Assembly: GCA_937889645.1 (NCBI GenBank)
Contig: CALBZE010000023.1
Location: forward strand, 7,159-71,158
Reading direction: 5' to 3'
DNA length: 64,000 nt
Source of the DNA: an uncultured bacterium
Lineage (GTDB): Bacteria > Gemmatimonadota > Gemmatimonadetes > Longimicrobiales > RSA9
Positions within the stretch are counted from its first letter, which is position 1. Every line of letters starts with the position of its first letter. Shown piece by piece: positions 8,284 through 60,425 of this stretch. A model generated the notes under the pieces. It ran no database searches and was not told where the DNA came from. It saw nothing but the letters and a program-made list of their open reading frames with translations. Made by a program: the position numbers and the translations under genes.

Positions 8284-11200
8284 GCCCGCGCCCTCCTTCG
8301 CCGAACTCCCATTCCCAGAAGAGGCCGACGCCGGTCTTCCTGCGCACCGTGAAGCCGGGCTCGTCCCTCCCGCCCGGCGCCGCCGGGAAGAAGCGAGGCA
8401 CGCTGAAGGCCTCGAGCTCGGCGCCGAGAGGCGCGTAGCCGCTGGCGCGGACGCGGACGCCCGGGAGCAGGTGTCCATCGAGCGCCTGGGTCACGAAGAC
8501 CTCGAAGCGATCGATGACCGCGCCGGCGCCGAGCATCGGCCCGACGGCGATGGGCGCGGGGTAGCTCGGCCCGACCCGGATCGTGCCCGCCTGCAGCCAG
8601 CCGCGCTCGAGCGGGATGTAGTCGTACGCCTCGTCGGCCGCGTAGCTCCAGAGGAGCGTGGCCGATTGCGTGAAGCTGCGCTCGTCGAACAGGTCGGCGG
8701 GATTCGACGGGCGCCAGACCGGCCAGCGTCGCCAGCCGGTCACCGGCTGCGGCTCGAGGTCGTAGATCAGCAGCTCGCCCAGCTGCTCCTGCGTCTCGGG
8801 GAGGAGCGACCAGCGGGTCAGCCGTTCGGTCGGCCGGCCGGCGGGCCCGATGCCGAGGAACTCGAGGGGTGGGGACCGGCGGGGCGCCGTCGCGGTCGCG
8901 ATGCGCCCCGAGCCGACCTGCCACTCCTCGCGATACTCGGCCTTGATCGCGATGCGCGGCTCCGTGCCGCCCTCGAAGCCGGCCGTGCCGCCGACGACGT
9001 GAAATCGTTTGCCGAAGAAGGCGTAGTATCCGCCCTCGACGTCGAGCGTGCCGTGTACCTCGATCGTCTCCTCCCCCGTCACCACCACGACCTCGCCCGT
9101 GCCGTACAGGTCGCTGTCCTCGTCCAGGACCGAGAACGCGGTGTCGACCTCGATGACGACGCGTACGTCGATCGGCGGCGGCCGGTCGTCGCGGGCGCGG
9201 CGGCGCAGCTCGGAGTCTTCGGGCCACGGGACGCGGCGGGCGAGGTCGGCGTAGGGCGGGTCGTCGGGGTCGAGGACGGGGTCCGGCCGGAACGCGTCCT
9301 CGTGCAGCCAGCCGTGCAGATCGTAGACGCGGCCGGTGAGCGAGGGCCGGTCGAACGGGCCCTCGAGCGCGAGCGTGGCGGAGGCGGTGACGTCGCCTTC
9401 CTCGTCGTCCTTGAAGTTCACGCTGTCGACGCGCACGGCAAGGTCGAAGCGGCGCGGGCGGTCGAAGAGGCGGACCGTACCCGTGACGACGACGTCGCCG
9501 CCGCCGGCGCGGGCGCCGAGGGTGTCGACGACGAGGAGCCCGTCGACGAGGCGCGTCTCGGCCGCGATCTCGTCGACCGCGAGCGAGAGCGGTTCGACGA
9601 AGAGCGCACCGTCGTCGAGCGTGAAGCGCGCATCGAAGCGCGGGGCGTCCACCGTGCCGCGGATGCGGCCGCGCCCTCGCGCGACGCCGCGCACGCTGTC
9701 GATCGCCTCCGGAAACGGGAGGAGCGCGAGCGGGAGCGAGTCGGCGACGACGTCGACGTGGATGGCGCCGTCGCCGGCGAGGACGACGGAGCCGTCGGCG
9801 ACGGCGACGAGGTCGGGCGGGCGCGGCGCGGGCGGTGCCGGTGGCGCGGGCGGCGCGGGCGGTGCGGGTGCCGGACGTGGGCGCGGAGCGGGCGGCGTGA
9901 CCGGCGCCGCCGGCTCGAGTCCCGCGACGCGGCGCGCGGCCTCCGGCTCCGCGGTCACGACCGCGGTGCCCGACAGCACGGGCGGCGCCGCGGGGCGATC
10001 GACGAGCCGCGCGGCGAGCGTCGCATGAATGCCGTCGATCCCGACGACGGCTACGTCGCCGGTGATCGTGAGGAGCTCGGCGGGTCCGACGATGTCGAGA
10101 CGAGCCGCGAACGCGGTGTCCGCCGCGCGGAGTGGCTCGGCGCGGAGCGCGAGGTCGAGGTACGGCTCGGGCTCGAGGACGACGTCGCCGCGGGCGGCGA
10201 AGCGGGAGACCTCTCCTCCGGCGCCGGTCCGGGCGAGCCGGGCGCGGAGTGCGATGCCGTCGCGGGCAGTGCCGTCGCCGGCGATCCAGCCGGTCCACGC
10301 GCCGGCGCCCGGGATCGCGACGCCGAACACGCGCTCGAAGTCCGCGGCGTGCACGGGCGCGGCCTCGGCGCGGAAGCGGCGGAAGCGCAGCGTCGGCTCG
10401 AGGTCGATCCCGCCGCGGGCCGCCGCGAGGGAGCGCCCGCTCGCCGCGCGCAGCCAGGCGATGTCGATCGTGCGGAGGCCCGGCCCGCCGGAGAGGGTAA
10501 CGACGCCCGCGCCGCCGCCCGGCGCGGCCCGCCCGAGCCGCGGGATGAATGTGGCCAACTCGGCGAACGCGAAGGTGTCCGCGGCGAGGGTCGTCGTCCA
10601 GGCGTTGGAGCGGTCCGCGTGGAAGTCGGCCGCGACGAGGGTCGCGGGGAGGCGCACCTTCGCCCGGGCGACGAGGCGGTCGCTCCGTTCGACGGTGAGG
10701 GCGAGCGAGCGGACATCGAGCGGCCGGCCGCGGATCTCGCCGACGGCGTTGGCGTCGACGACCTCGAGGCGTTCCGCGAGCCCGGCGTCGCGCCCGCCGA
10801 TTCGGATGTCGACGGCGACGAGGTCGATGTCGCGCATGCGCCAGAGCCAGCGATCGACTGCCCGCTCGGACGGTAGATCCTCAGCGGCGTGCACCGGCGC
10901 CCGCTCTCGTGGCGCCAGCGCTCCAACACTGCCGCGCTCCACCTCGAGCCGCCTCACCTCGACCCGTGGCTCGAGGATCTCGACGAAGAAGTCGAGCCCC
11001 GAGGCGTTGTCATGGGAAGCGATCCTTTCGCGGAAGGTCACTCCCGGCTGCCTGAGACGGAGCTCCTCGAAGACGAGGACCGGCGTGCCGGTCGCGACGG
11101 CGCCCGGCCGCCCCGTGGTGGCGGGAGCACCGGCCGCCGGCGGCGTCCCCGCACCGAGTACCCCGCCCGCGCCCCGGACCACCCCCTCCGCCCACGGCAG

Positions 11201-17235: not shown

Positions 17236-17248
17236 GTGTTGGGTGTTA

Positions 17249-17345
17249 GGGCTTGGGGCCTGGGGCTCAGGGCCTGGGGCTCAGGTGTTGGGCAACTCGG
17301 GGTCCGCCACCCCGAGCCCTGCGCCCTGGGCCCTGAGCCCCGGGG
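17249..17345. repeat. GC-rich nested inverted repeat built from TGGGGCTCAGGGCC-type units, immediately after the PLD gene stop
   Basis: TGGGGCTCAGGGCC (17261-17274) and TGGGGCTCAGG (17275-17285) are complementary to GGGCCCTGAGCCCCGGGG (17328-17345). Inner perfect hairpin CTCGGGG/CCCCGAG (17296-17302 / 17310-17316). No U-tract. Confidence 0.7.
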
Positions 17346-17350
17346 CGGTC

Positions 17351-17360
17351 GGGGGGGGGG
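17351..17360. other. G10 homopolymer tract
   Basis: Ten consecutive G read directly at 17351-17360. Confidence 0.95.
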
Positions 17361-17368
17361 CGGCGGTC

Positions 17369-17545
17369 ATGTAGAAACTGCACATTCGTCGGCGAATATC
17401 GCGAACCGTGTGCAGTTTTCCCCCACTAATGTGGAAATGCATCGCGGTGCGGCACGACCTGCGTTCACCGTGTGCAGTTGACCACGCTATTTGTAGAAAC
17501 GTCGCAAGCATCGCGATCGATCGCGATGCTTGCTACGTTTCTACA
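17369..17545. repeat. AT-richer island with three hairpin/palindrome units phased at 60-62 nt, each starting GTRGAAAY
   Basis: GTAGAAAC at 17371, GTGGAAAT at 17431, GTAGAAAC at 17493. CCGTGTGCAGTT at 17406 and 17468. 10-bp stem AAACTGCACA/TGTGCAGTTT (17375-84/17409-18). 54-nt palindrome at 17492-17545 with one mismatch. Confidence 0.8.
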
Positions 17546-17644
17546 CGCCCGGCTTCTCACCCGCGGTTCACGGGGCACGCGAGCATGCGATCGCGCGCAC
17601 ATGCGCGCGGCGTCCCTTACACGCCGGACTCCAACGCCGGCGTC

Positions 17645-17868
17645 CATCACAGGACCGCGTACCCACCGCCCACCCCTACGCTCTTCGCGCATCACAGGAC
17701 CGCGTGCCGACCGACCGCCGCTGCGCCCTCCGCCCATCACAGGACCGGGCGCCCCCCGCCCACCCCAACACTCTCCGCCAATCACAGGACCGCGCACCCC
17801 CACCCGCCCCAACACTCTCCGCCCATCGCAGTACCGGGCGCCCACCGTTTGCCTCACCGTCCCGCCGC
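17645..17868. repeat. five tandem copies of a 44-45-bp C-rich repeat (CATCACAGGACCGCG...)
   Basis: Unit starts at 17645, 17690, 17735, 17780 and 17824. Conserved head (C/A)ATC(A/G)CAG(G/T)ACCG(C/G)G and CCCACCCC/AACACTCTCCGCC tails. G-rich on the minus strand, directly downstream of the kinase stop (17897). Confidence 0.85.
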
Positions 17869-17896
17869 CCTCGGGGCTCGGCCGACGGACCCCGTC

Positions 17897-20419
17897 CTAC
17901 CGGGTACCCGAGCCCTGAGCCCCGAGCCCCGGGCCCTGGGGCCCGAGCCCCGGGCCCCGGGGCGGCCGGGCGGCGGCGGCGCACCGCGACGGCAGCCGCA
18001 GCGTGAAGGTGCTCCCCATGCCGGGGTGGCTTTCGACGCTCACGGTGCCGTCGAGGAGCGCGGCAAGGCGGCGGGCGATGGTGAGGCCCAGGCCCGTCCC
18101 GCCCTTCTCGCGGGTGATCGTGCTGTCGAGCTGGGTGAAGGGCTCGAAGATCAGCTCCTGCATGTCCTCGGGGATCCCGCGGCCGGTGTCGCGGACGTGG
18201 AAGGCGACGTGGTCCGCCGCCGTCGCGACCTCCAGCGCGACCTCGCCGGCGTCGGTGAACTTCACCGCGTTGCCCAGGAGATTGACGAGGATCTGGCGCA
18301 GCTTGCCGCCGTCGGTCTCCATGGCGAGACGGCCGTCGACGCCGTGGGTGCGGAGGGCGAGTCCTTTGGCCCTGGCCTCCGGCTCGATCATCGCGACGAC
18401 ATCGCGAGCGATCGCGGCCGCGTCGACGGTCGCGATCCTGACCTCCTCCTTCCCGGCTTCGGTCCGGGCGAAGGTCAGGATCTCTTCGATGATCGAGATG
18501 AGGTGCAGCGCGCTCTGCTGGATACGGCCGACGTGCTCGCGCTGGCGCTGGCTGATCGGGCCGGAGATGCCGCTCGCGAGGAGGTCGGCGTACCCGAGGA
18601 CGGCGGTCAGAGGCGTGCGCAGCTCGTGGCTCATGATGGCCAGGAACTGATCCTTCGCCTCGCTGGCCCGCTCTGCCGCCTCGCGGGCGTGGTGTTCGGC
18701 GCGGTAGGCCCGGGCGTTCTGGATCGCGCCGGCCACGCGACGAGCCAGCTCTTCGGCGAGAGGGATGTCCGCCTCCGAGAAGGTGCGGCCGGACTCGGCG
18801 TGGACGAGCGCGATCGCGCCGAAGCGGGTCTCGCCGATTTCGATCGGCACGACGAGGATCGAGCGAAGCCCGAGCGAGGGCAGCAGCTGGTAGCGCTCGG
18901 GGTCGGACCGCGCCTGCTCGTAGACCCACTCGGGAATGCCGGGCAGGAGGACCGAGCGGCCCGTCCGGATCACGGCGCCGACGCCGACCGCGGAATTGAA
19001 GCGCTGCGGGAACAGGCGCGTGAACGAGTCGGCCAGGCGACCCCGCTCCGGATCCGCGTGCACTCCGGCGACCCGACGGATCTGGTCGTCCTCCTCGACC
19101 AGGAAGATGGAGCACGAGTCGGCGATCTCGGGGACCGCCAGCTCGGCCACGCGATGGAGCGTCTCCTCGTATTCCGGCGAGCTGGCGAGCACGGCGCTCG
19201 CGTCGGCCAGGAAACGCAGCGCCCGCTCGGTGCGACGCTGCTCGCGGACGTCGATACCGATCCCGACCTGCGTGTCGTCGGAGAGGCGAATGTTGGCCCA
19301 CGACGTCTCCAGCACCGCGCCGCTCCGCGCCGTGACCAGCACGTCGCGCCATTCGCCTTCGGCCGACTGCATGAAGCGCCGCATCTCCTCGCGATAGTCG
19401 GGATCGGGGTAGCAGAGCTCCATCAGATCCCGCGTCGAGGCGTCCTCGCGCGACCAACCGAGGACCCGCTCGAACTCCCGGTTCACCTTGAACTGCCGCA
19501 GCGCGGGGTCGTAGATCGTGATCATCACGGGGATCGCGTCGATGATGCGCTCGAGCAGCTCGCGCTCGTGCCGCAGCTCGCGCTCGGCCCTCACGCTCTC
19601 CGTGATGTCCCGGGCGACGCCGACCACCCCGATGATCGCGCCGTCCACGTTTCGCAGTGGGGTTTTCGTCGTGAAGAAGTGGCGCACCGTGCCGGCGGCG
19701 ATCCCGACCTGCTCGGTCGTGCGCGGCTCGCCCGCCTCCAGGACTTCGCGGTCCCGCGCGATCGCGCGTTCGGCTGTTTCCGGCTCGAAGATCTCGAAGT
19801 CGGTCTTGCCGATCGTCTCCTCGACCGACCGGCCGACCATGCGCGCGCCCGCTTCGTTGATGAGGAGGTAGCGGCCTTCGACGTCTTTGACGAATACCGC
19901 ATCGGTGGTCGCGTCCAGCACGGCCTTGAGAAGGTCCCGGCTCTCGCGCAGCTCGGCCTCCATGCGGCGCCGCCATTCGACCTCCTGGCGCGCCGACTCG
20001 CGGCCGGTCACGTCCCGGACGAGCTGGTACGCGCCTTCGATGCTGCCGTCCGGCGCGAGCAGCGGCGCGAAGGTGACCTCGTAGACGGTCTTCACCGTCG
20101 GAGACCGACCCGCCGGGACCACCTCCGTGAACGACTCACCCGCGAGCGCACGGCGCCACCGGCCCATCACGAGCTCGCGTTCCTCGGGCCAGCCGGCGAG
20201 CACGGCTTCCAGCTCCGAGCCGCGCTCGACCGACACGCCGAACCGCCGCTCGAAGTCCTCCCGGAACGCCCGGCTCACGTACGTGAACCGGAAGTCCGCG
20301 TCGATCGCAGCGATGCGTTCCTGCGACTGGTCCACAATGCGCGCGAGGGTCGCCGCCGCGGTGTCCGCTGCTCCCGCGACTCGTCGGTCTTCCGGATCCG
20401 CTCTACGGGTACGGGTCAT
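17897..20419 (-). CDS. cytoplasmic multi-PAS + GAF sensor histidine kinase (840 aa)
   Basis: HisKA box FLAIMSHELRTPLTAVLGYADLL. HATPase boxes LVNLLGNAVKFT, DTGRGIP, GGTGLGLTIARRL. Several PAS-like segments and a GAF-like segment upstream. ATG at 20419. Confidence 0.9.
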   Translation of the reverse strand: MTRTRRADPEDRRVAGAADTAAATLARIVDQSQERIAAIDADFRFTYVSRAFREDFERRFGVSVERGSELEAVLAGWPEERELVMGRWRRALAGESFTEVVPAGRSPTVKTVYEVTFAPLLAPDGSIEGAYQLVRDVTGRESARQEVEWRRRMEAELRESRDLLKAVLDATTDAVFVKDVEGRYLLINEAGARMVGRSVEETIGKTDFEIFEPETAERAIARDREVLEAGEPRTTEQVGIAAGTVRHFFTTKTPLRNVDGAIIGVVGVARDITESVRAERELRHERELLERIIDAIPVMITIYDPALRQFKVNREFERVLGWSREDASTRDLMELCYPDPDYREEMRRFMQSAEGEWRDVLVTARSGAVLETSWANIRLSDDTQVGIGIDVREQRRTERALRFLADASAVLASSPEYEETLHRVAELAVPEIADSCSIFLVEEDDQIRRVAGVHADPERGRLADSFTRLFPQRFNSAVGVGAVIRTGRSVLLPGIPEWVYEQARSDPERYQLLPSLGLRSILVVPIEIGETRFGAIALVHAESGRTFSEADIPLAEELARRVAGAIQNARAYRAEHHAREAAERASEAKDQFLAIMSHELRTPLTAVLGYADLLASGISGPISQRQREHVGRIQQSALHLISIIEEILTFARTEAGKEEVRIATVDAAAIARDVVAMIEPEARAKGLALRTHGVDGRLAMETDGGKLRQILVNLLGNAVKFTDAGEVALEVATAADHVAFHVRDTGRGIPEDMQELIFEPFTQLDSTITREKGGTGLGLTIARRLAALLDGTVSVESHPGMGSTFTLRLPSRCAAAARPPRGPGLGPQGPGLGAQGSGTR
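17907..17962. repeat. GCCCTGAGCCCC/GAGCCCCGGGCCC repeat block, inverted relative to 17249-17285, lying inside the 3' end of the kinase gene
   Basis: CCCGAGCCCTGAGCCCCGAGCCCCGGGCCCTGGGGCCCGAGCCCCGGGCCCCGGGG. GAGCCCCGGGCCC occurs twice. Its reverse complement shares GGGGCTCAGGG with the left block. Confidence 0.75.
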
Positions 20420-54642: not shown

Positions 54643-56280
54643 ATGACATCGAGGAATCGTGATCGCGTCCGCCGGGTCGCGCGGCTCGTGGCGGCGCCGT
54701 CGGGCAGACGCCGCTCGGAGGCGGCGCCGTCCGTCCTTCGCAGGTCCATCGCCGCGGCCATCGCTGCGTTGGCGCTTGCTACGCTCGGCGCGTCGCCGGC
54801 GACGGCGCAACGAGCCGACTTCGGTTCCGCACCGGCCCCGCCCCGGATCGACACCCTCGCCCTCCGCGAGCACACCCGCTTCCTCGCCGACGACCGGCTC
54901 GAGGGGCGCGGGACGGGGACGCCGGGCGAGCGCATCGCCGCCGACTACATCCGTCGGCAGCTCGAGCGGATCGGCGCGCGCGGCGCCGCGGCCGACGGCG
55001 GCTACCTCCAGCCGATCCCGCTGCGCGTGGCCACGATCGACGACGCCGCGACGCGAGTCGCCGTGGTACGCGACGGCACGCGTGCCGAATTCGCGAGCGG
55101 CAGCGACTTCATCGTCGAGCGCGGCGGCCGCGGCGCGTTCCGCGACTTTTCCGGGGCGGCGATCTTCGCCGGGACCGCGGCCATCGCGCGCGACGCGCTG
55201 GCCCGCCACGAGCGGCTGGACGGGCACGTGGTCGTCCTGATCGGCACGCTCGGCGACCACGCCGCGGAGCTGATCCCGGATTGGACGCGGCGCGGCGCCG
55301 AAGGCGTCGTCTACATCGTCCCCGAGAGGGACCGATTCGATGCGTACGCGCGCAGCCGCGGCGGTGAGCGCTACTACGTCGATGCCGACGTCGACGAACC
55401 CGCCTGGCAGTCGCCGCTCCCCACGCTCGTGGCCGGGCCGCGCCTGGCCGCGGCGCTGCTGGCCGGTGCGCCGCTCGCGCCCGACGCGCTGGACGGTTCG
55501 AAGCCGTTCGACGCCCTCCCCCTCGGCCGGACGCTCGAGGCGACGATCCGCGTCGCCGACACGCCGCTCCCCGCCGCGAACGTCGCGGCGCTGATCCCGG
55601 GGCGCGACCCGGCGCTGCGGGACGAGGTCGTCGCCTACACGGCCCACTACGACCACGTCGGGATCGGCCCGGCCGACGCGACCGGCGATTCGATCTACAA
55701 CGGCTTCTCGGACAACGCCGCGGGCGTCGCAATGCTGCTCGCCATCGGCGAGGCGTTCGTGCGCGAGCCGCCGGCGCGGTCGGTCCTACTCCTCTTCTTC
55801 ACGGGCGAGGAGCTGGGGTTGCTCGGATCGGCGTACTACGTGGCGGAGCCGCTGGTCCCGTTGGAGCGGACCGTCGCCGTCATCAACCTGGACGCCGGCG
55901 CGCCGCCCGCGCCGCCCCGGAGCTGGCGGGTCGCGGGCGGGACATCGTCGACCCTGGGCGACGTCGCGCGCAGCGTCGCCGCGGCGCAGGGGTGGACAGC
56001 CGAGCCGTCCGGCCCGCGGCCCAACTCGGATTACTGGCCGTTCCTCCACGCCGGCGTGCCGGCCGTCTTCCTCATCCCCGGCTCCGACTGGGAGGGTGTC
56101 ACGCGCGCCGAGCAGGAGGCGCTCCGCGCCCGCTGGGACCGCTACCACCAGCCCGGCGACGAGTGGCACCCGGAATTCCCCTTCGCGGGGCTGCGGCGTT
56201 ACGCGGAATTCGCGTGGCTGGTCGGGGCGGAGGTGGCGAATGCGCCCGGGCGGCCGAGGATGATGGGTGGGGGTGGGTGA
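54643..56280 (+). CDS. secreted M28-family metallopeptidase (aminopeptidase-like), 545 aa
   Basis: ATG at 54643. Signal ...AALALATLGASPATAQ. AHYDHVG, FSDNAAGVAMLL, LLFFTGEELGLLGSAYY metal-ligand contexts. The C-terminus ...RPRMMGGGG runs into the G-rich repeat. Confidence 0.85.
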   Translation: MTSRNRDRVRRVARLVAAPSGRRRSEAAPSVLRRSIAAAIAALALATLGASPATAQRADFGSAPAPPRIDTLALREHTRFLADDRLEGRGTGTPGERIAADYIRRQLERIGARGAAADGGYLQPIPLRVATIDDAATRVAVVRDGTRAEFASGSDFIVERGGRGAFRDFSGAAIFAGTAAIARDALARHERLDGHVVVLIGTLGDHAAELIPDWTRRGAEGVVYIVPERDRFDAYARSRGGERYYVDADVDEPAWQSPLPTLVAGPRLAAALLAGAPLAPDALDGSKPFDALPLGRTLEATIRVADTPLPAANVAALIPGRDPALRDEVVAYTAHYDHVGIGPADATGDSIYNGFSDNAAGVAMLLAIGEAFVREPPARSVLLLFFTGEELGLLGSAYYVAEPLVPLERTVAVINLDAGAPPAPPRSWRVAGGTSSTLGDVARSVAAAQGWTAEPSGPRPNSDYWPFLHAGVPAVFLIPGSDWEGVTRAEQEALRARWDRYHQPGDEWHPEFPFAGLRRYAEFAWLVGAEVANAPGRPRMMGGGG

Positions 56281-56398
56281 GGGGGCGTGTGGTGATGGGC
56301 GGTGGGGGTGGCGTGGCGGTGTGGTGGCGGGTGGCGGTGTGGTGGTGTGGCCCGGTTGGTTGGGGCGTGCGTAGTGTGTGGTGGCGGGTGGGTTTCGC
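56262..56398. repeat. G/T-rich low-complexity block (GGTGG/GGGTG/GGCGG iterations) starting inside the last codons of the M28 gene
   Basis: tgatgggtgggggtgggtgagggggcgtgtggtgatgggcggtgggggtggcgtggcggtgtggtggcgggtggcggtgtggtggtgtgg... read directly. Many G3-G5 runs on the plus strand. Confidence 0.8.
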
Positions 56399-56417
56399 AG
56401 GGACCGCGTCGCGGCCC

Positions 56418-56590
56418 AAAGTGCACCCATGGCCGGCTTGCCGCGGGAGCGGGTGCGAATTGGTGGAACTATTCTACCCAGTCGCACCATCGTTTCGGGC
56501 GGTGAATTTTCGGGTTCGGTTGGGTGGAAATATTCGACCAAATCGCACCATCGTCGTGCGGCGGGAGTTGTGGGTGCACTTCGGTAGAAT
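56418..56590. repeat. AT-richer island: an 11-bp inverted repeat enclosing two 32-nt direct repeats, with GTRGAAW motifs phased at 60-61 nt
   Basis: AAGTGCACCCA (56419-56429) / TGGGTGCACTT (56571-56581). GGTGGAACTATTCTACCCAGTCGCACCATCGT (56462-56493) versus GGTGGAAATATTCGACCAAATCGCACCATCGT (56523-56554), 28/32 identical. A third, shortened copy GGTAGAATCGCGCCACC at 56583. Confidence 0.8.
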
Positions 56591-56780
56591 CGCGCCACCC
56601 GACACCCACGCCGGCCCGGTGCTACCCCGCGCCCATCGCCCACTCGCCCTCGCCGCGCGTTCGCCCGCCGGGCCGGCTCCCGCAGCCGCCCCGGCCCGCC
56701 CACCGCACTTGCCCCGGACCGCACCGCGCCCGATCTTCCCCCGGCAATTCCCAGTATTGTCCCTGACGAGGAGGTGGAAC

Positions 56781-57221
56781 ATGGCCGCGGATCGGATCGC
56801 TGAAGCGACTTGGGAGGGGAGCCTGGCGCAGGGTCAGGGGAGGATCGACCTGAAGAGCAGCGGGCTCGCGACCGCGATGCCCGTGACGTGGGCGTCGCGC
56901 ACAGAACAGCCGGACGGGAAGACCAGCCCCGAGGAGCTGCTCGCGGCGGCGCACGCCTCGTGCTTCGCCATGGCGCTGTCGCACCAGCTCGCCAGCGCGG
57001 GGCACACGCCCGAGCGGCTCGATGTCCGCGCCGTCGCAACGTTCGACAAAGTGGGCGAGGGCTTCCGGGTGACGAGCGTGCGCCTGAACGTCCGCGGCCG
57101 CGTCCCCGGCGCCGACGAGGCCGCGTTCATGAATGCCGCCAACGCCGCCAAGGACGGCTGCCCGATCTCCCGGGCGCTCCAGGGGAACGTCGACATCTCG
57201 CTGGAGGCGATGCTGGAGTAG
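56781..57221 (+). CDS. osmC: OsmC/Ohr-family peroxiredoxin (146 aa)
   Basis: GAGGAGGTGG SD before ATG 56781. ...TSPEELLAAAHASCFAMALS... and ...AKDGCPISRAL... (two conserved Cys contexts). Confidence 0.9.
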   Translation: MAADRIAEATWEGSLAQGQGRIDLKSSGLATAMPVTWASRTEQPDGKTSPEELLAAAHASCFAMALSHQLASAGHTPERLDVRAVATFDKVGEGFRVTSVRLNVRGRVPGADEAAFMNAANAAKDGCPISRALQGNVDISLEAMLE

Positions 57222-57313: not shown

Positions 57314-57355
57314 GAAGAAACGGGTCGGCGACATCATATCGCCGACCCGTCTTCT
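57314..57355. terminator. bidirectional terminator hairpin between convergent osmC and the ECF sigma gene
   Basis: GAAGA-aa-CGGGTCGGCGA / loop CATCATA / TCGCCGACCCG-TCTTC (11 + 5 bp), flanked by T/A-rich runs on both sides. Confidence 0.6.
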
Positions 57356-58075: not shown

Positions 58076-58207
58076 AGGTCTCCTTTCCCGGGGCGACGAG
58101 GGCACACACACGTACTCCCGCCGGCCGCGAACGCCATCCAAATCAACGAGAATCGGGAACGGTTCCCCGGCTCGTCATTGTCGCGAGAAATCAATGCTAC
58201 AACTTAT

Positions 58208-58255
58208 AAAAACTCGCCCCCGAACTCAAGGGTTGCGTGGGGCGAGTTTTCTCTG
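58208..58255 (-). terminator. intrinsic-terminator-like hairpin in the AT-rich region upstream of the sigma gene
   Basis: 12-bp perfect stem AAAACTCGCCCC/GGGGCGAGTTTT (58209-58220 / 58239-58250) with an 18-nt loop. T-runs follow on both strands (minus strand: UUUUUAUAAG). Confidence 0.5.
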
Positions 58256-58454
58256 TTTCCAATAATCATTGAAACAACGCCGCGCCGCGCCGATACTGGT
58301 GGTGATGGGGTTGTGGTGAGCCCGAAAACGCTGCGGTGGGCGACGGGTGCGTGGGTTCGGCGCATAGGCGGTGCTCCGCGTTCGGGGGAGGGTGTGGGAT
58401 GAGCCCAATGTAGGGAAGGAGGGCGGGGCGCGCCATGGCGTTGTAGGCCAGCGG

Positions 58455-58700: not shown

Positions 58701-58800
58701 AGCGGTCGGCTCCTGCTTGAGCGGTCGGCTCCTGGCTGGAGGCGTTCACGACGCCGGCCCGACGGGCGCAAGAGGTATGCCCTGGAGGGGGCGCCGCGCC

Positions 58801-58995
58801 CCGGGGCGCGATGTAGCCGGGCGCCGTGTGGCCGGGCGCCGTGTGGCCGGGCGCCGTGTGGCCGGGCGCAATGTAGCCGGGCGCAATGTAGCCGGGCGCG
58901 ATGTAGCCGGGCGCGATGTAGCCGGGCGCGATGTGGCCGGGCGCGATGTGGCCGGGCGCGATGTGGCCGGGCGCGGTGCGACCGGGGCGCGGGGA
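58801..58995. repeat. 15-bp minisatellite, 11 well-conserved + 2 degenerate units (GCCGGGCGC + variable hexamer)
   Basis: GCCGGGCGC occurs every 15 bp from 58816 to 58966. Hexamers come in blocks: 3x CGTGTG, 2x AATGTA, 2x GATGTA, 3x GATGTG, 1x GGTGCG. Confidence 0.95.
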
Positions 58996-59152
58996 CGCGG
59001 CGCAACGGGGGCGCGGTCGCACTACGTCCCCGAGGGCGGTCGCGGGGCCGGCCGTCACGCCGAGCCGCCGGTGCGGGTCACTCCGACCGGCCGGGCGTGC
59101 GCCCGTTCACCCTCCCGACGTGCGCCCGCTCGCCCTCGCGGCGTGCGCCCGT

Positions 59153-59611
59153 TCACCCTCCGGGCGTGTGCCAGCGGAAGGTGGCGGCGTCCTGGCGGGC
59201 ACCGACGACCTCTGCGACGGGCCGGTCGGGGAGGCGGACGAGGACCCGCACGGCCTCGGGGACGACGAGGATGTAGTCGGTGTGCTCGCCGCCGACCGTC
59301 GTCACTTGGAGGACGTGGCCGCCCTGGTCGGAGAGTCCGAAACCGGGGAGGCCGCGGAGCACGCGGGCGGTCACCTCGAGGCGGCCGGGCTGGCCGCGGA
59401 TCAGGCGGAGCGTGCCGGGCACTCCGGCGTCGACGCGGACCGTGAGGCGGTCGCCGAGGAAGGTGTAGGTCTGCCGGACCGTCTCGGCGTCGTGGCTCTG
59501 GGCCGCCGCGGGCGCGGGACGCACGGCCGCGGCGGCCGCGGCGAGCGCGATCGCCGCGACCGTGACGACACGCGGGCGAGTGCTGCGGGCGGTTCGAGCG
59601 TGCCGGGTCAT
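59153..59611 (-). CDS. secreted hypothetical protein (152 aa)
   Basis: ATG at 59611 inside ORF 59153..60088. MTRHARTARSTRPRVVTVAAIALAAAAAAVRPAPAAAQ signal, then a beta-rich-looking body. Confidence 0.65.
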   Translation of the reverse strand: MTRHARTARSTRPRVVTVAAIALAAAAAAVRPAPAAAQSHDAETVRQTYTFLGDRLTVRVDAGVPGTLRLIRGQPGRLEVTARVLRGLPGFGLSDQGGHVLQVTTVGGEHTDYILVVPEAVRVLVRLPDRPVAEVVGARQDAATFRWHTPGG

Positions 59612-59723: not shown

Positions 59724-60425
59724 TCAGCGGTTCGGCATCGAGCCGTTGGTGTCGCTGCCCGGCGTCGTCGAGCCAGGAGTCGTCGCGCCCGGCGCGGTGT
59801 CCATCGGCTGCGCTGGCTGCGTCCCGGGCTGCGTCCCCGGTTGGGTGCCGGGCTGCGTGCCGAGCTGGCCGGTCTGCGGGCTCGAGACGACGATGTCCTC
59901 GTGGACGCTCCAGCGCTGGTAGTCGGGCTCCTGCTGGAGCTGCGACTGTTGGATCCAGGTCGATGCCTGGCCCGACGGCGCCTGCTGCAGCGTGCCCATG
60001 ATCTCGACGTCGCGGCCGGTCTGGATCTCGGCCATCTCCAGCACCTGCCCGTCCCGCTTCGTGGCCGGCGTCCGCACGAACAGCGCATGGGCCTCGCCGT
60101 TCACCTCGGAGGCGATCCAGAAGCCCTCGCTGGTCGGCTGGCCGACGATCTGCCCCTGGATCAGGACGGTGCGGCCGACGTCGTCCATGCCGAGCGGGAG
60201 CAGGGAGCGCAGTTCGGCCGGCGCGCCCTCGGGCGTGATCGGCGTGGGCGCCGGAACGGCCGCGGCGGGCTCCTCGACCTGCTCGACGGTTTCCGTCCCG
60301 GCGACCTGCTCCTCGTCGGTGTCGACCATCTCCGCGATGGCCCAGATCAGGAGTGCCAGGACCAGCAGGCCGATGATCCACGGCCAGATCGATGGCCCTT
60401 TGCGTTCGACGTTGATGTCCGCCAT
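59724..60425 (-). CDS. N-terminally membrane-anchored protein with a C-terminal (GTQP)4 and TTPGS repeats (233 aa)
   Basis: GGAAGGAGG SD before ATG 60425. MADINVERKGPSIWPWIIGLLVLALLIWAIAEM anchor. (GTQP)x4 encoded at 59814-59861. Confidence 0.75.
   Translation of the reverse strand: MADINVERKGPSIWPWIIGLLVLALLIWAIAEMVDTDEEQVAGTETVEQVEEPAAAVPAPTPITPEGAPAELRSLLPLGMDDVGRTVLIQGQIVGQPTSEGFWIASEVNGEAHALFVRTPATKRDGQVLEMAEIQTGRDVEIMGTLQQAPSGQASTWIQQSQLQQEPDYQRWSVHEDIVVSSPQTGQLGTQPGTQPGTQPGTQPAQPMDTAPGATTPGSTTPGSDTNGSMPNR

Follow-up and report, generated by a model that had tools for sequence, protein, structure and literature searches.

The 500-nt spacer that separates an M28-family peptidase gene from osmC is held here, with moderate confidence, to be a young, species-specific expansion of an ancestral spacer of about 100 nt, rather than a functional element that has been conserved. 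It comprises three layers that differ in age. The first layer (a) would be a G/T-rich minisatellite produced by tandem duplication of the last codons and the stop of the peptidase gene, with a copy number that is still varying. The second (b) is a nested palindrome of ~190 nt, relatively AT-rich, composed of three to four 61-nt units, and the third (c) is a C-rich tract inherited in part from the ancestor in common with the nearest sister lineage. The data are explicable without a sequence-specific regulatory role.

All positions refer to the window, that is, the whole 64-kb stretch of DNA that was analysed, whose G+C content (71.6%) is the reference for the composition of the AT-rich layer, designated below as the core. 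In the original prediction, this spacer was paired with a second one (locus 1) as two members of one family. The genes and the comparator are the following:

54670..56280, + strand: M28-family peptidase gene (ORF list; Pfam PF04389, E 6.6e-36), which precedes osmC in relatives too
56781..57221, + strand: osmC, encoding an OsmC-family peroxiredoxin of 146 aa (Pfam PF02566; homologues named OsmC family peroxiredoxin)
17236..17896, no strand: locus 1, spacer of 661 nt flanked by two convergent genes (PLD-like and histidine kinase)

The start of the peptidase gene is not firmly placed, the ORF being open from 54472, and its last codons are GGT GGG GGT GGG TGA, with the stop ending at 56280. Other assemblies of this species have a spacer of 526 nt after it. 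Gene callers placed no ORF over the core in any of seven contigs holding the same locus, a search for tRNA and tmRNA remnants returned none, and no cas, transposase, integrase or RAYT-like gene is present among the 26 ORFs of the window. Nothing specific was found in the literature on intergenic palindromic repeats of Gemmatimonadota or on bacterial template-switch hairpins.

Comparison with related lineages

The peptidase–osmC gene order is kept in six related lineages, in which the spacer measures 182, 163, 98, 98, 98, and 96 nt where OsmC is 93, 92, 91, 90, 89, and 87% identical, respectively. Neither the G-rich minisatellite nor any part of the AT-rich core was found in these six lineages, and the empty site reads ...CCGCG / CCACCC... 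in L088 and CCGCA / CACC in L008. Within the spacer, conservation in all six is limited to the stretch of ~75 nt that precedes the osmC ATG:

56708..56780, + strand: conserved osmC-proximal region (conservation in six related lineages)

This region holds TTGCCC (56709-14), separated by 17 nt from GATCTT (56732-37), and the Shine-Dalgarno sequence GAGGAGG (56768-74), and a CTTGCC...CAACTT arrangement is also present upstream of the OsmC homologue in L009. According to this conservation, 56708-56780 is predicted to be the actual promoter of osmC with a short 5' UTR, which we consider likely. As a control, the region upstream of an ECF sigma factor gene was compared, and it is nearly invariant in three of these lineages (L088, L091, and L096); therefore, functional non-coding DNA is detectably conserved at such evolutionary distance. 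Lineage-specific tandem repeats have also been observed in other spacers of the clade.

The G/T-rich minisatellite

The layer adjacent to the peptidase gene is a tandem array:

56261..56397, + strand: G/T-rich minisatellite of 26-32-nt units (repeat families, TRF, GC skew)

Both the GC skew of this block (+0.6 to +0.77) and the ORF list agree with the original prediction that a G/T-rich block at 56262-56398 starts in the last codons of the upstream gene. These codons seed the G-rich repeat, the first unit of which includes the peptidase stop codon, and TRF describes the array (56261-56351) with periods of 32 nt (x2.6) and 26 nt (x2.9). Copy number differs within the species, as L001-L003 carry 26 extra nt with respect to the window and L005. 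Both features that define minisatellites or VNTRs, head-to-tail units and copy-number polymorphism between strains, are thus found in the G-rich array; the 61-nt units of the core are likewise in tandem, and polymorphism has not been seen in them. Contigs assembled from short reads run unbroken through the core and break instead in the G-rich array, which argues that the core is single-copy.

The C-rich tract and the remnant of the ancestral spacer

Two sequences at the margins of the core find counterparts in lineages that lack it:

56398..56409, + strand: CAGGGACCGCGT, which aligns to TCGGGAACCGCA in L008, a lineage without the element
56590..56707, + strand: C-rich, G-poor tract (GC skew -0.3 to -0.4)

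The sequence CAGGGACCGCGT is indeed located where it had been reported, but its proposed likeness to the heads of the repeats at 17645 is weak, since the 10-mer CAGGACCGCG occurs 42 times in the window with one mismatch at most. Because relatives without the element carry GGGAACCGCA at the matching spot, CAGGGACCGCGT is ancestral local sequence, a remnant of the short spacer and not a head specific to a repeat family.

Part of the C-rich tract (56619-56678) aligns with the C-rich tract of L088, the nearest sister lineage, and this homology indicates that it is older than the core. The C-rich block had been described as partly complementary to the G-rich one; it exists and can pair with it, but when the arms were shuffled within 30-nt blocks the folding energy was equal (z -0.2 with the core, -0.4 for the arms alone), so the complementarity is compositional. 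A giant 479-nt hairpin joining both blocks, with an initial z of -5.1, was dropped for the same reason.

The AT-rich core and its 61-nt units

The core and the repeats that compose it are listed below:

56398..56601, + strand: core, a nested palindrome centred near 56500 (GC profile, folds, assembly comparison)
56416..56429, + strand: left arm of the inverted repeat around the core, CCAAAGTGCACCCA (13/14 complementary to 56571-56584)
56571..56584, + strand: right arm of the inverted repeat around the core, TGGGTGCACTTCGG (pairs with 56416-56429)
56386..56449, + strand: degenerate, GC-richer first unit (nhmmer E 1e-3, a weak value as the sequence was part of the model)
56450..56510, + strand: unit 2, 61 nt (nhmmer E 5e-11; direct and inverted repeats)
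56511..56571, + strand: unit 3, 61 nt (82% identical to unit 2 over 44 nt; nhmmer E 8e-12)
56572..56624, + strand: partial fourth unit with a GTAGAAT head at 56584 (unit profile match at 56571-56624, nhmmer E 9e-8)

The G+C content of the core is about 50-57%, and its sequence is identical in five independent assemblies. By comparison with the lineages described above, the core is confined to the source species, where it appears to be single-copy. The 11-bp perfect inverted repeat that had been noticed (AAGTGCACCCA / TGGGTGCACTT at 56419-29 / 56571-81) is confirmed and extends to 13/14 positions (56416-29 / 56571-84). The two direct repeats enclosed by it are also real, but longer than the 32 nt initially assigned to them: they span 44 nt at 56450 and 56511, 61 nt apart, and each contains a 17+3+17 palindrome. 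Likewise, the heads GTGGAAC, GTGGAAA, and GTAGAAT fall at 56463, 56524, and 56584 as predicted, the last one in the shortened copy, which is at the same time an inverted partial copy of unit 2. These phased 61-nt units and the 11-14 bp inverted repeat exceed chance.

The palindrome of unit 2 (56452-56488) consists of GGTGCGAATTGGTGGAA, cta, and TTCTACCCAGTCGCACC, with an inner 6-3-6 repeat (GTGGAAcTAtTCTAC), and its hairpin reaches -25.4 kcal/mol (z -4.9) on the + strand and -16.4 kcal/mol on the - strand. That of unit 3 (56513-56549) is weaker (-15 kcal/mol, z -1.4). The nested inverted repeats have a common centre near 56500, and the RNA fold of the entire core (56398-56601) is -106.3 kcal/mol on the + strand versus -87.6 on the - strand. 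Against shuffles that keep local composition, the fold of 56398-56589 has a z of -6.1, while the DNA fold of 56410-56590 has a z of -3.85.

This strong folding, better on the sense strand, and the wobble-type mismatches, which favour the + strand by 24 to 5 over the whole region, are what would be expected of a structured ncRNA gene or a long structured leader of osmC, as originally proposed for one of two members of a family. We consider this reading very improbable. The strand asymmetry originates largely from the G/T-rich and C-rich arms, and falls to 11 to 5 in the core alone. No Rfam hit was obtained (gathering threshold for the window; E<=1 for 56200-56850), no consensus promoter is found inside the spacer region, and the scan for terminators yielded none inside 56281-56780 and one after osmC (57318-57352). 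Intrinsic (Rho-independent) terminators consist of a G+C-rich stem-loop followed by a U-tract; the hairpins of the units lack clear U-tracts, that of unit 2 being followed by AUCGUUUC, a poor one. Moreover, even the nearest sister lineages show no conservation of the region, the conserved promoter-like pair is located downstream of it, and the two loci are not homologous. The leader in particular is not supported, as the six same-order lineages lack the region and yet keep the last ~75 nt before osmC.

The phased palindromes (GTGGAAnTAnTTCnAC) could also be viewed as an array of DNA sites bound by a nucleoid protein or by a regulator acting as a dimer or tetramer, which would represent a new layer of osmC control or a chromosomal mark. 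The 6-3-6 palindrome (GTGGAAcTAtTCTAC and GTGGAAaTAtTCGAC) lies within a 37-bp dyad repeated at 61 bp, units that differ elsewhere at 18% of positions show no change in the 12-nt TCGCACCATCGT, and an equal hexamer with equal spacing is present at the second locus. Nevertheless, osmC and the promoter-like sequence close to it are kept in six lineages that have no such array, no neighbouring gene encodes a regulator, locus 1 is located between convergent genes with nothing to regulate, and the 15-bp palindrome of the units does not occur in locus 1 or in the rest of the window. Such an array is, in consequence, regarded as quite doubtful.

The period of 60-61 nt matches the lengths of repeat plus spacer of some CRISPR types, and the units of locus 1 resemble each other more at their heads and tails than in between. 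A CRISPR-like mini-array, either decayed or orphan, with repeats ending in GTRGAAAY, has been weighed, and its probability is close to nil. CRISPR arrays are made of near-identical repeats of 23-47 nt and unique spacers of similar length, and they are usually accompanied by cas genes. At the osmC locus, in contrast, 44 of the 61 nt are common to the units, leaving a 'spacer' of 17 nt, and the candidate repeats are just 74-82% alike; furthermore, there are no cas genes or cas domains in the window, and the array is not found in relatives. The anatomy of the units effectively refutes a CRISPR array.

Other candidates were rejected as well. An ECF sigma factor promoter within the units would have its GGAAC and CGTT elements spaced by 21 nt, versus 13 nt for the neighbouring sigma factor gene, whose promoter-like site is conserved. 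Motifs of dif/Xer, parS, DnaA boxes, OhrR operators, NtrC sites, attC, and IS5 ends, taken from general knowledge, do not match beyond 6-8 bases.

A second locus with phased GTRGAA heads

Locus 1 contains heptamer arrays, three units of 60-62 nt with GTRGAA heads at 17371, 17431, and 17493, and 45-nt C-rich repeats (x4.6). The RNA fold of 17236-17965 has a z of -8.2, and Rfam searches returned only sub-threshold look-alikes of miRNA hairpins. In L101 the orthologous spacer is 46 nt long; that of L098 spans about 197 nt, of which 100 are the Ns of a gap. Locus 1 is accordingly viewed, from these lengths, as a lineage-specific expansion too (from 46 to 661 nt).

Seven of the nine GTRGAAW sites of the window fall within the two loci, and three GTRGAA heads on the same strand, 57-64 nt apart, were found only at these two loci in the 1.33 Mb searched. 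What the two have in common, out of the 'same design' originally attributed to them, is this phasing at 60-62 nt and a strong structure; the orientation of the heads relative to the G-rich side is opposite, and the resemblance is only loose. That they belong to one family is not borne out. Local alignment of locus 1, in both reverse complement and forward orientation, against the osmC spacer gave a weak match restricted to low-complexity G-rich sequence, whose score was reached by 5 of 200 shuffles and is not significant, and the alignments between the AT-rich cores were no better than shuffles (252 and 308 of 500 reached the score). The nhmmer profiles of the units gave no cross-hits between the loci. 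Nor did they detect any additional copy in 147 kb of DNA from Gemmatimonadota, composed of the 64-kb window and about 83 kb of relatives, so that the share of the source genome is ~64 kb; some 4 kb of additional source-genome DNA held no new phased site.

Two loci with three GTRGAA heads at 60-62 nt suggest a common process or binding protein, which pure slippage does not predict, and this counts against the expansion reading. There is a slim chance that one process or protein, still unrecognised, made both loci in this Longimicrobiales species, building GTRGAA-headed palindromic modules with a pitch of 60-62 nt at the 3' ends of genes. It could take the form of a modular element or of a DNA-binding or recombination system. 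If true, the two loci would represent a novel type of array, REP/MITE-like or centromere-like, the members of which are alike in architecture and have almost no common sequence.

The low G+C content of the core, which duplication of adjacent DNA would hardly produce, also counts against the expansion and hints at a foreign or mobile origin. The core would then have arrived as a mobile, non-autonomous palindromic module (MITE-, REP/BIME- or BOX-like), which entered the spacer after the peptidase stop and before the osmC promoter; locus 1 would hold a distant relative. This is unlikely, even if several features fit it: clean presence or absence with respect to the empty site of six lineages, a sequence AT-rich relative to the genome, the 13/14 subterminal inverted repeat 6 nt inside the putative ends with its nested hairpin, a possible short flanking direct repeat (TCGCG at 56410-14 and 56590-94), and the phased GTRGAA heads common to both loci. 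On the contrary, TCGCG is a common CG-rich word that does not occur at the empty site of the sisters, and the flanking expansions obscure the exact boundaries. A second copy was found neither across the window (64 kb) nor in the ~83 kb from relatives, the cores of the two loci lack similarity, the assemblies are unbroken at the core, and no transposase or RAYT-like gene is encoded in the window. Matches were absent when the core was compared by blastn with phages and plasmids and when viral contigs were scanned with the unit pattern. A metagenome scan for AAGTGCACCCA-N(125-155)-TGGGTGCACTT recovered four unrelated contigs of AT-rich organisms holding an unrelated palindrome, a result that says little on copy number, as this paired-arm scan missed even the source species.

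Proposed origin and implications

The expansion of the ancestral spacer is proposed to have proceeded through replication slippage together with hairpin-promoted duplication or template switching, on a starting spacer that would already have borne a G-rich/C-rich pair. The seed of the core may have been the one-off insertion of a single palindromic module, triplicated locally afterwards. In transcripts that read through the end of the peptidase gene, the core would form a highly stable stem-loop. This structure might, at most, shield the osmC promoter as a 3' barrier or insulator, a role against which the negative terminator scan and the poor U-tracts of the unit hairpins weigh.

A tempting annotation, that of an osmC leader or a family of ncRNAs, is thereby removed as wrong. 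Intergenic spacers in this poorly studied clade of Gemmatimonadota turn over very fast, by means of repeats and palindromes that start inside the ends of genes. This is relevant to the assembly of MAGs, in which contigs break at such sites, to strain typing by means of variable arrays, and to comparative searches for regulatory RNAs. If the phasing at 60-62 nt reflects a common mechanism, an undescribed repeat-generating or repeat-binding system would be at work.

Comparison with known systems

The features of the known systems compared here are drawn from general knowledge. REP, BIME and REPIN elements, mobilised by RAYT transposases, resemble the core in being short palindromes with a GTAG/GTGG-type tetranucleotide that follow the ends of genes as pairs, both direct and inverted. 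However, the REP tetranucleotide is 5' and outside the stem, whereas GTRG is here inside the stem, beside the loop; and REP copies are counted in tens to hundreds, while those described here are confined to one locus, with no RAYT gene among the 26 ORFs of the window.

MITE-like elements, such as ERIC, Correia/NEMIS, BOX, and RUP, are also imperfect palindromes of 100-200 nt that occupy transcribed spacers and form a long hairpin. Similarly to the core, they are present or absent between close relatives, and they can be modular, as occurs with the boxB copies in BOX. Contrary to the core, of which no second copy has been found, they are multi-copy with conserved ends; neither a conserved terminal repeat family nor a clear target duplication or partner transposase was found here.

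Template-switch hairpins share with the core the nested inverted repeats with one centre (near 56500) and the presumed de novo origin in one lineage. They differ in that they are documented for short hairpins and, to our knowledge, a nested palindrome of 190 nt with a tandem period of 61 nt has never been attributed to template switching.

The minisatellites or VNTRs of high-G+C bacteria, represented by the mycobacterial MIRU loci, offer a further comparison. MIRUs are dispersed and similar between loci, while the units here are locus-specific, and the G-rich array derives from the 3' end of its own neighbouring gene. In common with MIRU-type loci, units of tens of bases occupy spacers of co-oriented genes, abut or overlap the upstream stop codon, differ in copy number between strains (the 26-nt indel in this case), and diverge sharply between close lineages.

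Genomic Setting of the osmC-Upstream Spacer

The window has a G+C content of 71.6%, and the genomes that match it most closely are MAGs of Gemmatimonadota, carrying the labels Gemmatimonadaceae and Longimicrobiales. The spacer under study (56281-56780) is bordered by the following genes:

Stop ending at 56280, + strand: M28-family peptidase gene (Pfam PF04389), upstream of the spacer
ATG at 56781, + strand: osmC (Pfam PF02566), downstream of the spacer
Beyond osmC, opposite strand: ECF sigma gene

A perfect, bidirectional terminator-like hairpin (57318-57352) parts osmC from the convergent ECF sigma gene; in two related contigs (L091 and L092), a 20-nt x3.8 tandem repeat takes its place.

Conservation of the Spacer

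An identical OsmC is encoded on seven metagenome contigs. Alignment of five of them across the spacer shows a single difference, a 26-nt indel, so the region is not an assembly artefact. The peptidase-osmC gene order is kept in six more distant lineages, with far shorter spacers.

Table. OsmC identity and spacer length in the window and in contigs of the same species and relatives.
Window: 100%, 500 nt
Same species (L001, L002): 100%, 526 nt
L088, L095: 93%, 182 nt
L092, L093: 92%, 163 nt
L102: 91%, 98 nt
L008: 90%, 98 nt
L103: 89%, 98 nt
L096: 87%, 96 nt

Neither the G-rich minisatellite (56261-56397) nor any part of the AT-rich core (56398-56601) is found in any of these six lineages. Common to all is the final ~75 nt, formed by TTGCCC, 17 nt, GATCTT, and then GAGGAGG and the ATG. 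In addition, the portion 56619-56678 of the C-rich tract (56590-56707) can be aligned to the nearest sister lineage and is therefore older than the core. As a positive control, the non-coding DNA upstream of the ECF sigma gene shows almost no change in L088, L091, and L096, which indicates that functional non-coding DNA is clearly conserved at this evolutionary distance, whereas the expanded region upstream of osmC, as judged from these alignments, is not.

The conserved TTGCCC-17 nt-GATCTT pair (56709-56737) may be a promoter for an alternative sigma factor. A similar CTTGCC...CAACTT precedes an OsmC homologue on another contig (L009, about 9920-9955), where the upstream neighbour is a different, divergently transcribed gene. 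The region upstream of the ECF sigma gene (58138-58260, minus strand) holds a clear intrinsic terminator for an 81-aa gene (CTCGCCCC...GGGGCGAG plus TTTTT), followed by GGGAACC-N-TTCCCGATTCTCGTTGATTTGG, likely an autoregulated ECF-type promoter.

Repeat Architecture and Folding

Every sequence feature listed in the original prediction was found at its position. The G/T-rich block, with a GC skew of up to +0.77, consists of tandem 26-32-nt units, the first of which contains the peptidase stop codon. Since the 26-nt indel, the sole difference among the five same-species contigs, falls within it, the array genuinely varies in copy number. Among the contigs encoding the identical OsmC, three start inside this array, and no contig end falls within the core. 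The last peptidase codons and stop (GGGTGGGGGTGGGTGAGGGGG, 56265-56286) make up a run of four G-tracts of the textbook G-quadruplex type; the same gene end also has four G-tracts (GGGAGGTGGGGGTGGGTGAAGTCGGG) in L008 (9887-9912), L102, and L103, and the run is retained only partly in other relatives.

In the core, the enclosing inverted repeat is present (13/14 complementary, 56416-29 / 56571-84), and the direct repeats are real, being 44 nt long, 82% identical, and spaced at 61 nt. Each carries a 17+3+17 palindrome, inside which lies a 6-3-6 repeat, GTGGAAcTAtTCTAC. As the unit profile also detects a degenerate copy ahead of both direct repeats and a partial copy behind them, the core appears to consist of three to four 61-nt units. 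The CAGGGACCGCGT head, claimed to be kin to the repeat heads of the comparator spacer (locus 1), is a common genome word with 42 near matches; it aligns with GGGAACCGCA in relatives without the element, and is thus ancestral local sequence.

The whole 479-nt region folds as a single 179-pair hairpin with its centre near 56498 (-286 kcal/mol; z -5.1 versus whole-sequence shuffles). The proposed complementarity between the G-rich and C-rich blocks is not specific: arms shuffled within 30-nt blocks, keeping local composition, fold equally well (z -0.2 with the core present, z -0.4 for the arms alone), and equally good pairing is expected wherever a C-rich block follows a G-rich one. The core by itself is strongly non-random in folding (z -6.1), with an energy of -106 kcal/mol on the sense strand versus -88 on the opposite one; for the hairpin of unit 2 (56450-56510), these values are -25.4 and -16.4. 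Wobble-type mismatches favour the sense strand by 24 to 5 overall, but only by 11 to 5 in the core. Given this sense-strand advantage of the core and unit 2, the likeliest physical consequence would be a stable stem-loop in peptidase read-through transcripts, serving as a 3' barrier before the osmC promoter.

Comparison with Locus 1

Locus 1 (17236-17896) is a 661-nt spacer between convergent PLD-like and histidine-kinase genes, proposed to share its design and family with the osmC-upstream spacer. In one relative, the orthologous spacer measures 46 nt; in a second, it reaches about 197 nt, counting an assembly gap. Locus 1 is strongly structured (z -8.2) and folds as several hairpins, not one. 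Seven of the nine GTRGAAW occurrences in the window lie within the two loci, the only places in the 1.33 Mb of DNA searched where three GTRGAA heads share a strand at distances of 57-64 nt. The common design holds for the phasing of three heads at 60-62 nt, but not for orientation, which is opposite relative to the G-rich flank since the heads are on the + strand at both loci. As for a single family, the best locus-to-locus alignment is a low-complexity G-rich match reached by 5/200 shuffles, core-to-core alignment is no better than shuffles, and the unit profiles give no cross-hits. These comparisons detect no homology between the two loci. Their shared pitch and hexamer are a coincidence lacking explanation and no evidence of one family, and identical phasing at two unrelated loci is a loose end.

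Heptamer tandem arrays lie right after the PLD-like gene stop, inverted on the two sides of the spacer (17249-17344 and 17907-17959; GGGGCTC/AGGGCCT). They are wholly different from lineage to lineage, as in the relatives L097 (4195-4283, TAGGGCG) and L098 (4303-4377 and 4478-4506, GGTCTYR). Contigs and scaffolds end at these arrays, which in the window and L098 lengthen the predicted C-termini of the flanking proteins.

Origin of the Spacer

The osmC-upstream region has no Rfam match, tRNA, tmRNA, or consensus promoter or terminator. A CRISPR array was rejected on anatomy, as the units have 44/61 nt in common.

The spacer would be a composite of three layers differing in age: a young minisatellite that varies between strains and was seeded by the G-rich end of the peptidase gene itself; a 190-nt nested palindrome of 61-nt units, species-specific and apparently single-copy; and an older C-rich tract. 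The osmC promoter and a short leader are likely downstream of all three. The tandem and nested structure would have arisen through slippage and duplication promoted by hairpins, and lineage-specific arrays in other spacers of this clade fit such a general tendency. The main feature left over by this account is the low G+C of the core, for which a single insertion of a palindromic module, foreign or mobile in origin, is a less likely alternative. The core shows no similarity to phage, plasmid, or viral contigs, and no cas, transposase, integrase, or RAYT-like domain occurs among the 26 window ORFs. A metagenome scan with the paired inverted-repeat arms returned solely an unrelated palindrome from AT-rich organisms. 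This near-perfect palindrome of 154-174 nt (L104, 894-1047; L107, 4216-4389) has the 11-mer AAGTGCACCCA at both ends, matching by chance; its occurrence on four contigs suggests a separate repeated element within those metagenomes.

Among other repeats, a third expanded spacer (58701-59158), bordered by the 81-aa gene on one side and the orthologue of a 150-aa protein on the other, holds 15-nt x12.5 (58804-58991) and 23-nt x3.4 (59094-59172) arrays, without an AT-rich core or GTRGAA phasing; its orthologous spacer in L088 is about 218 nt. A 12-nt coding repeat specifies GTQP/GMQP tetrapeptides close to the C-terminal end of a 230-aa protein that is conserved and membrane-anchored (window, 59815-59867; L088, 5752-5810; L008, 12477-12578), differing in copy number and sequence by lineage.

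The original prediction was therefore largely right in observation and mostly wrong in interpretation: the feature, a rapidly evolving repeat and palindrome between genes, is real but of an ordinary kind, and belongs to a phylum that has received little study.
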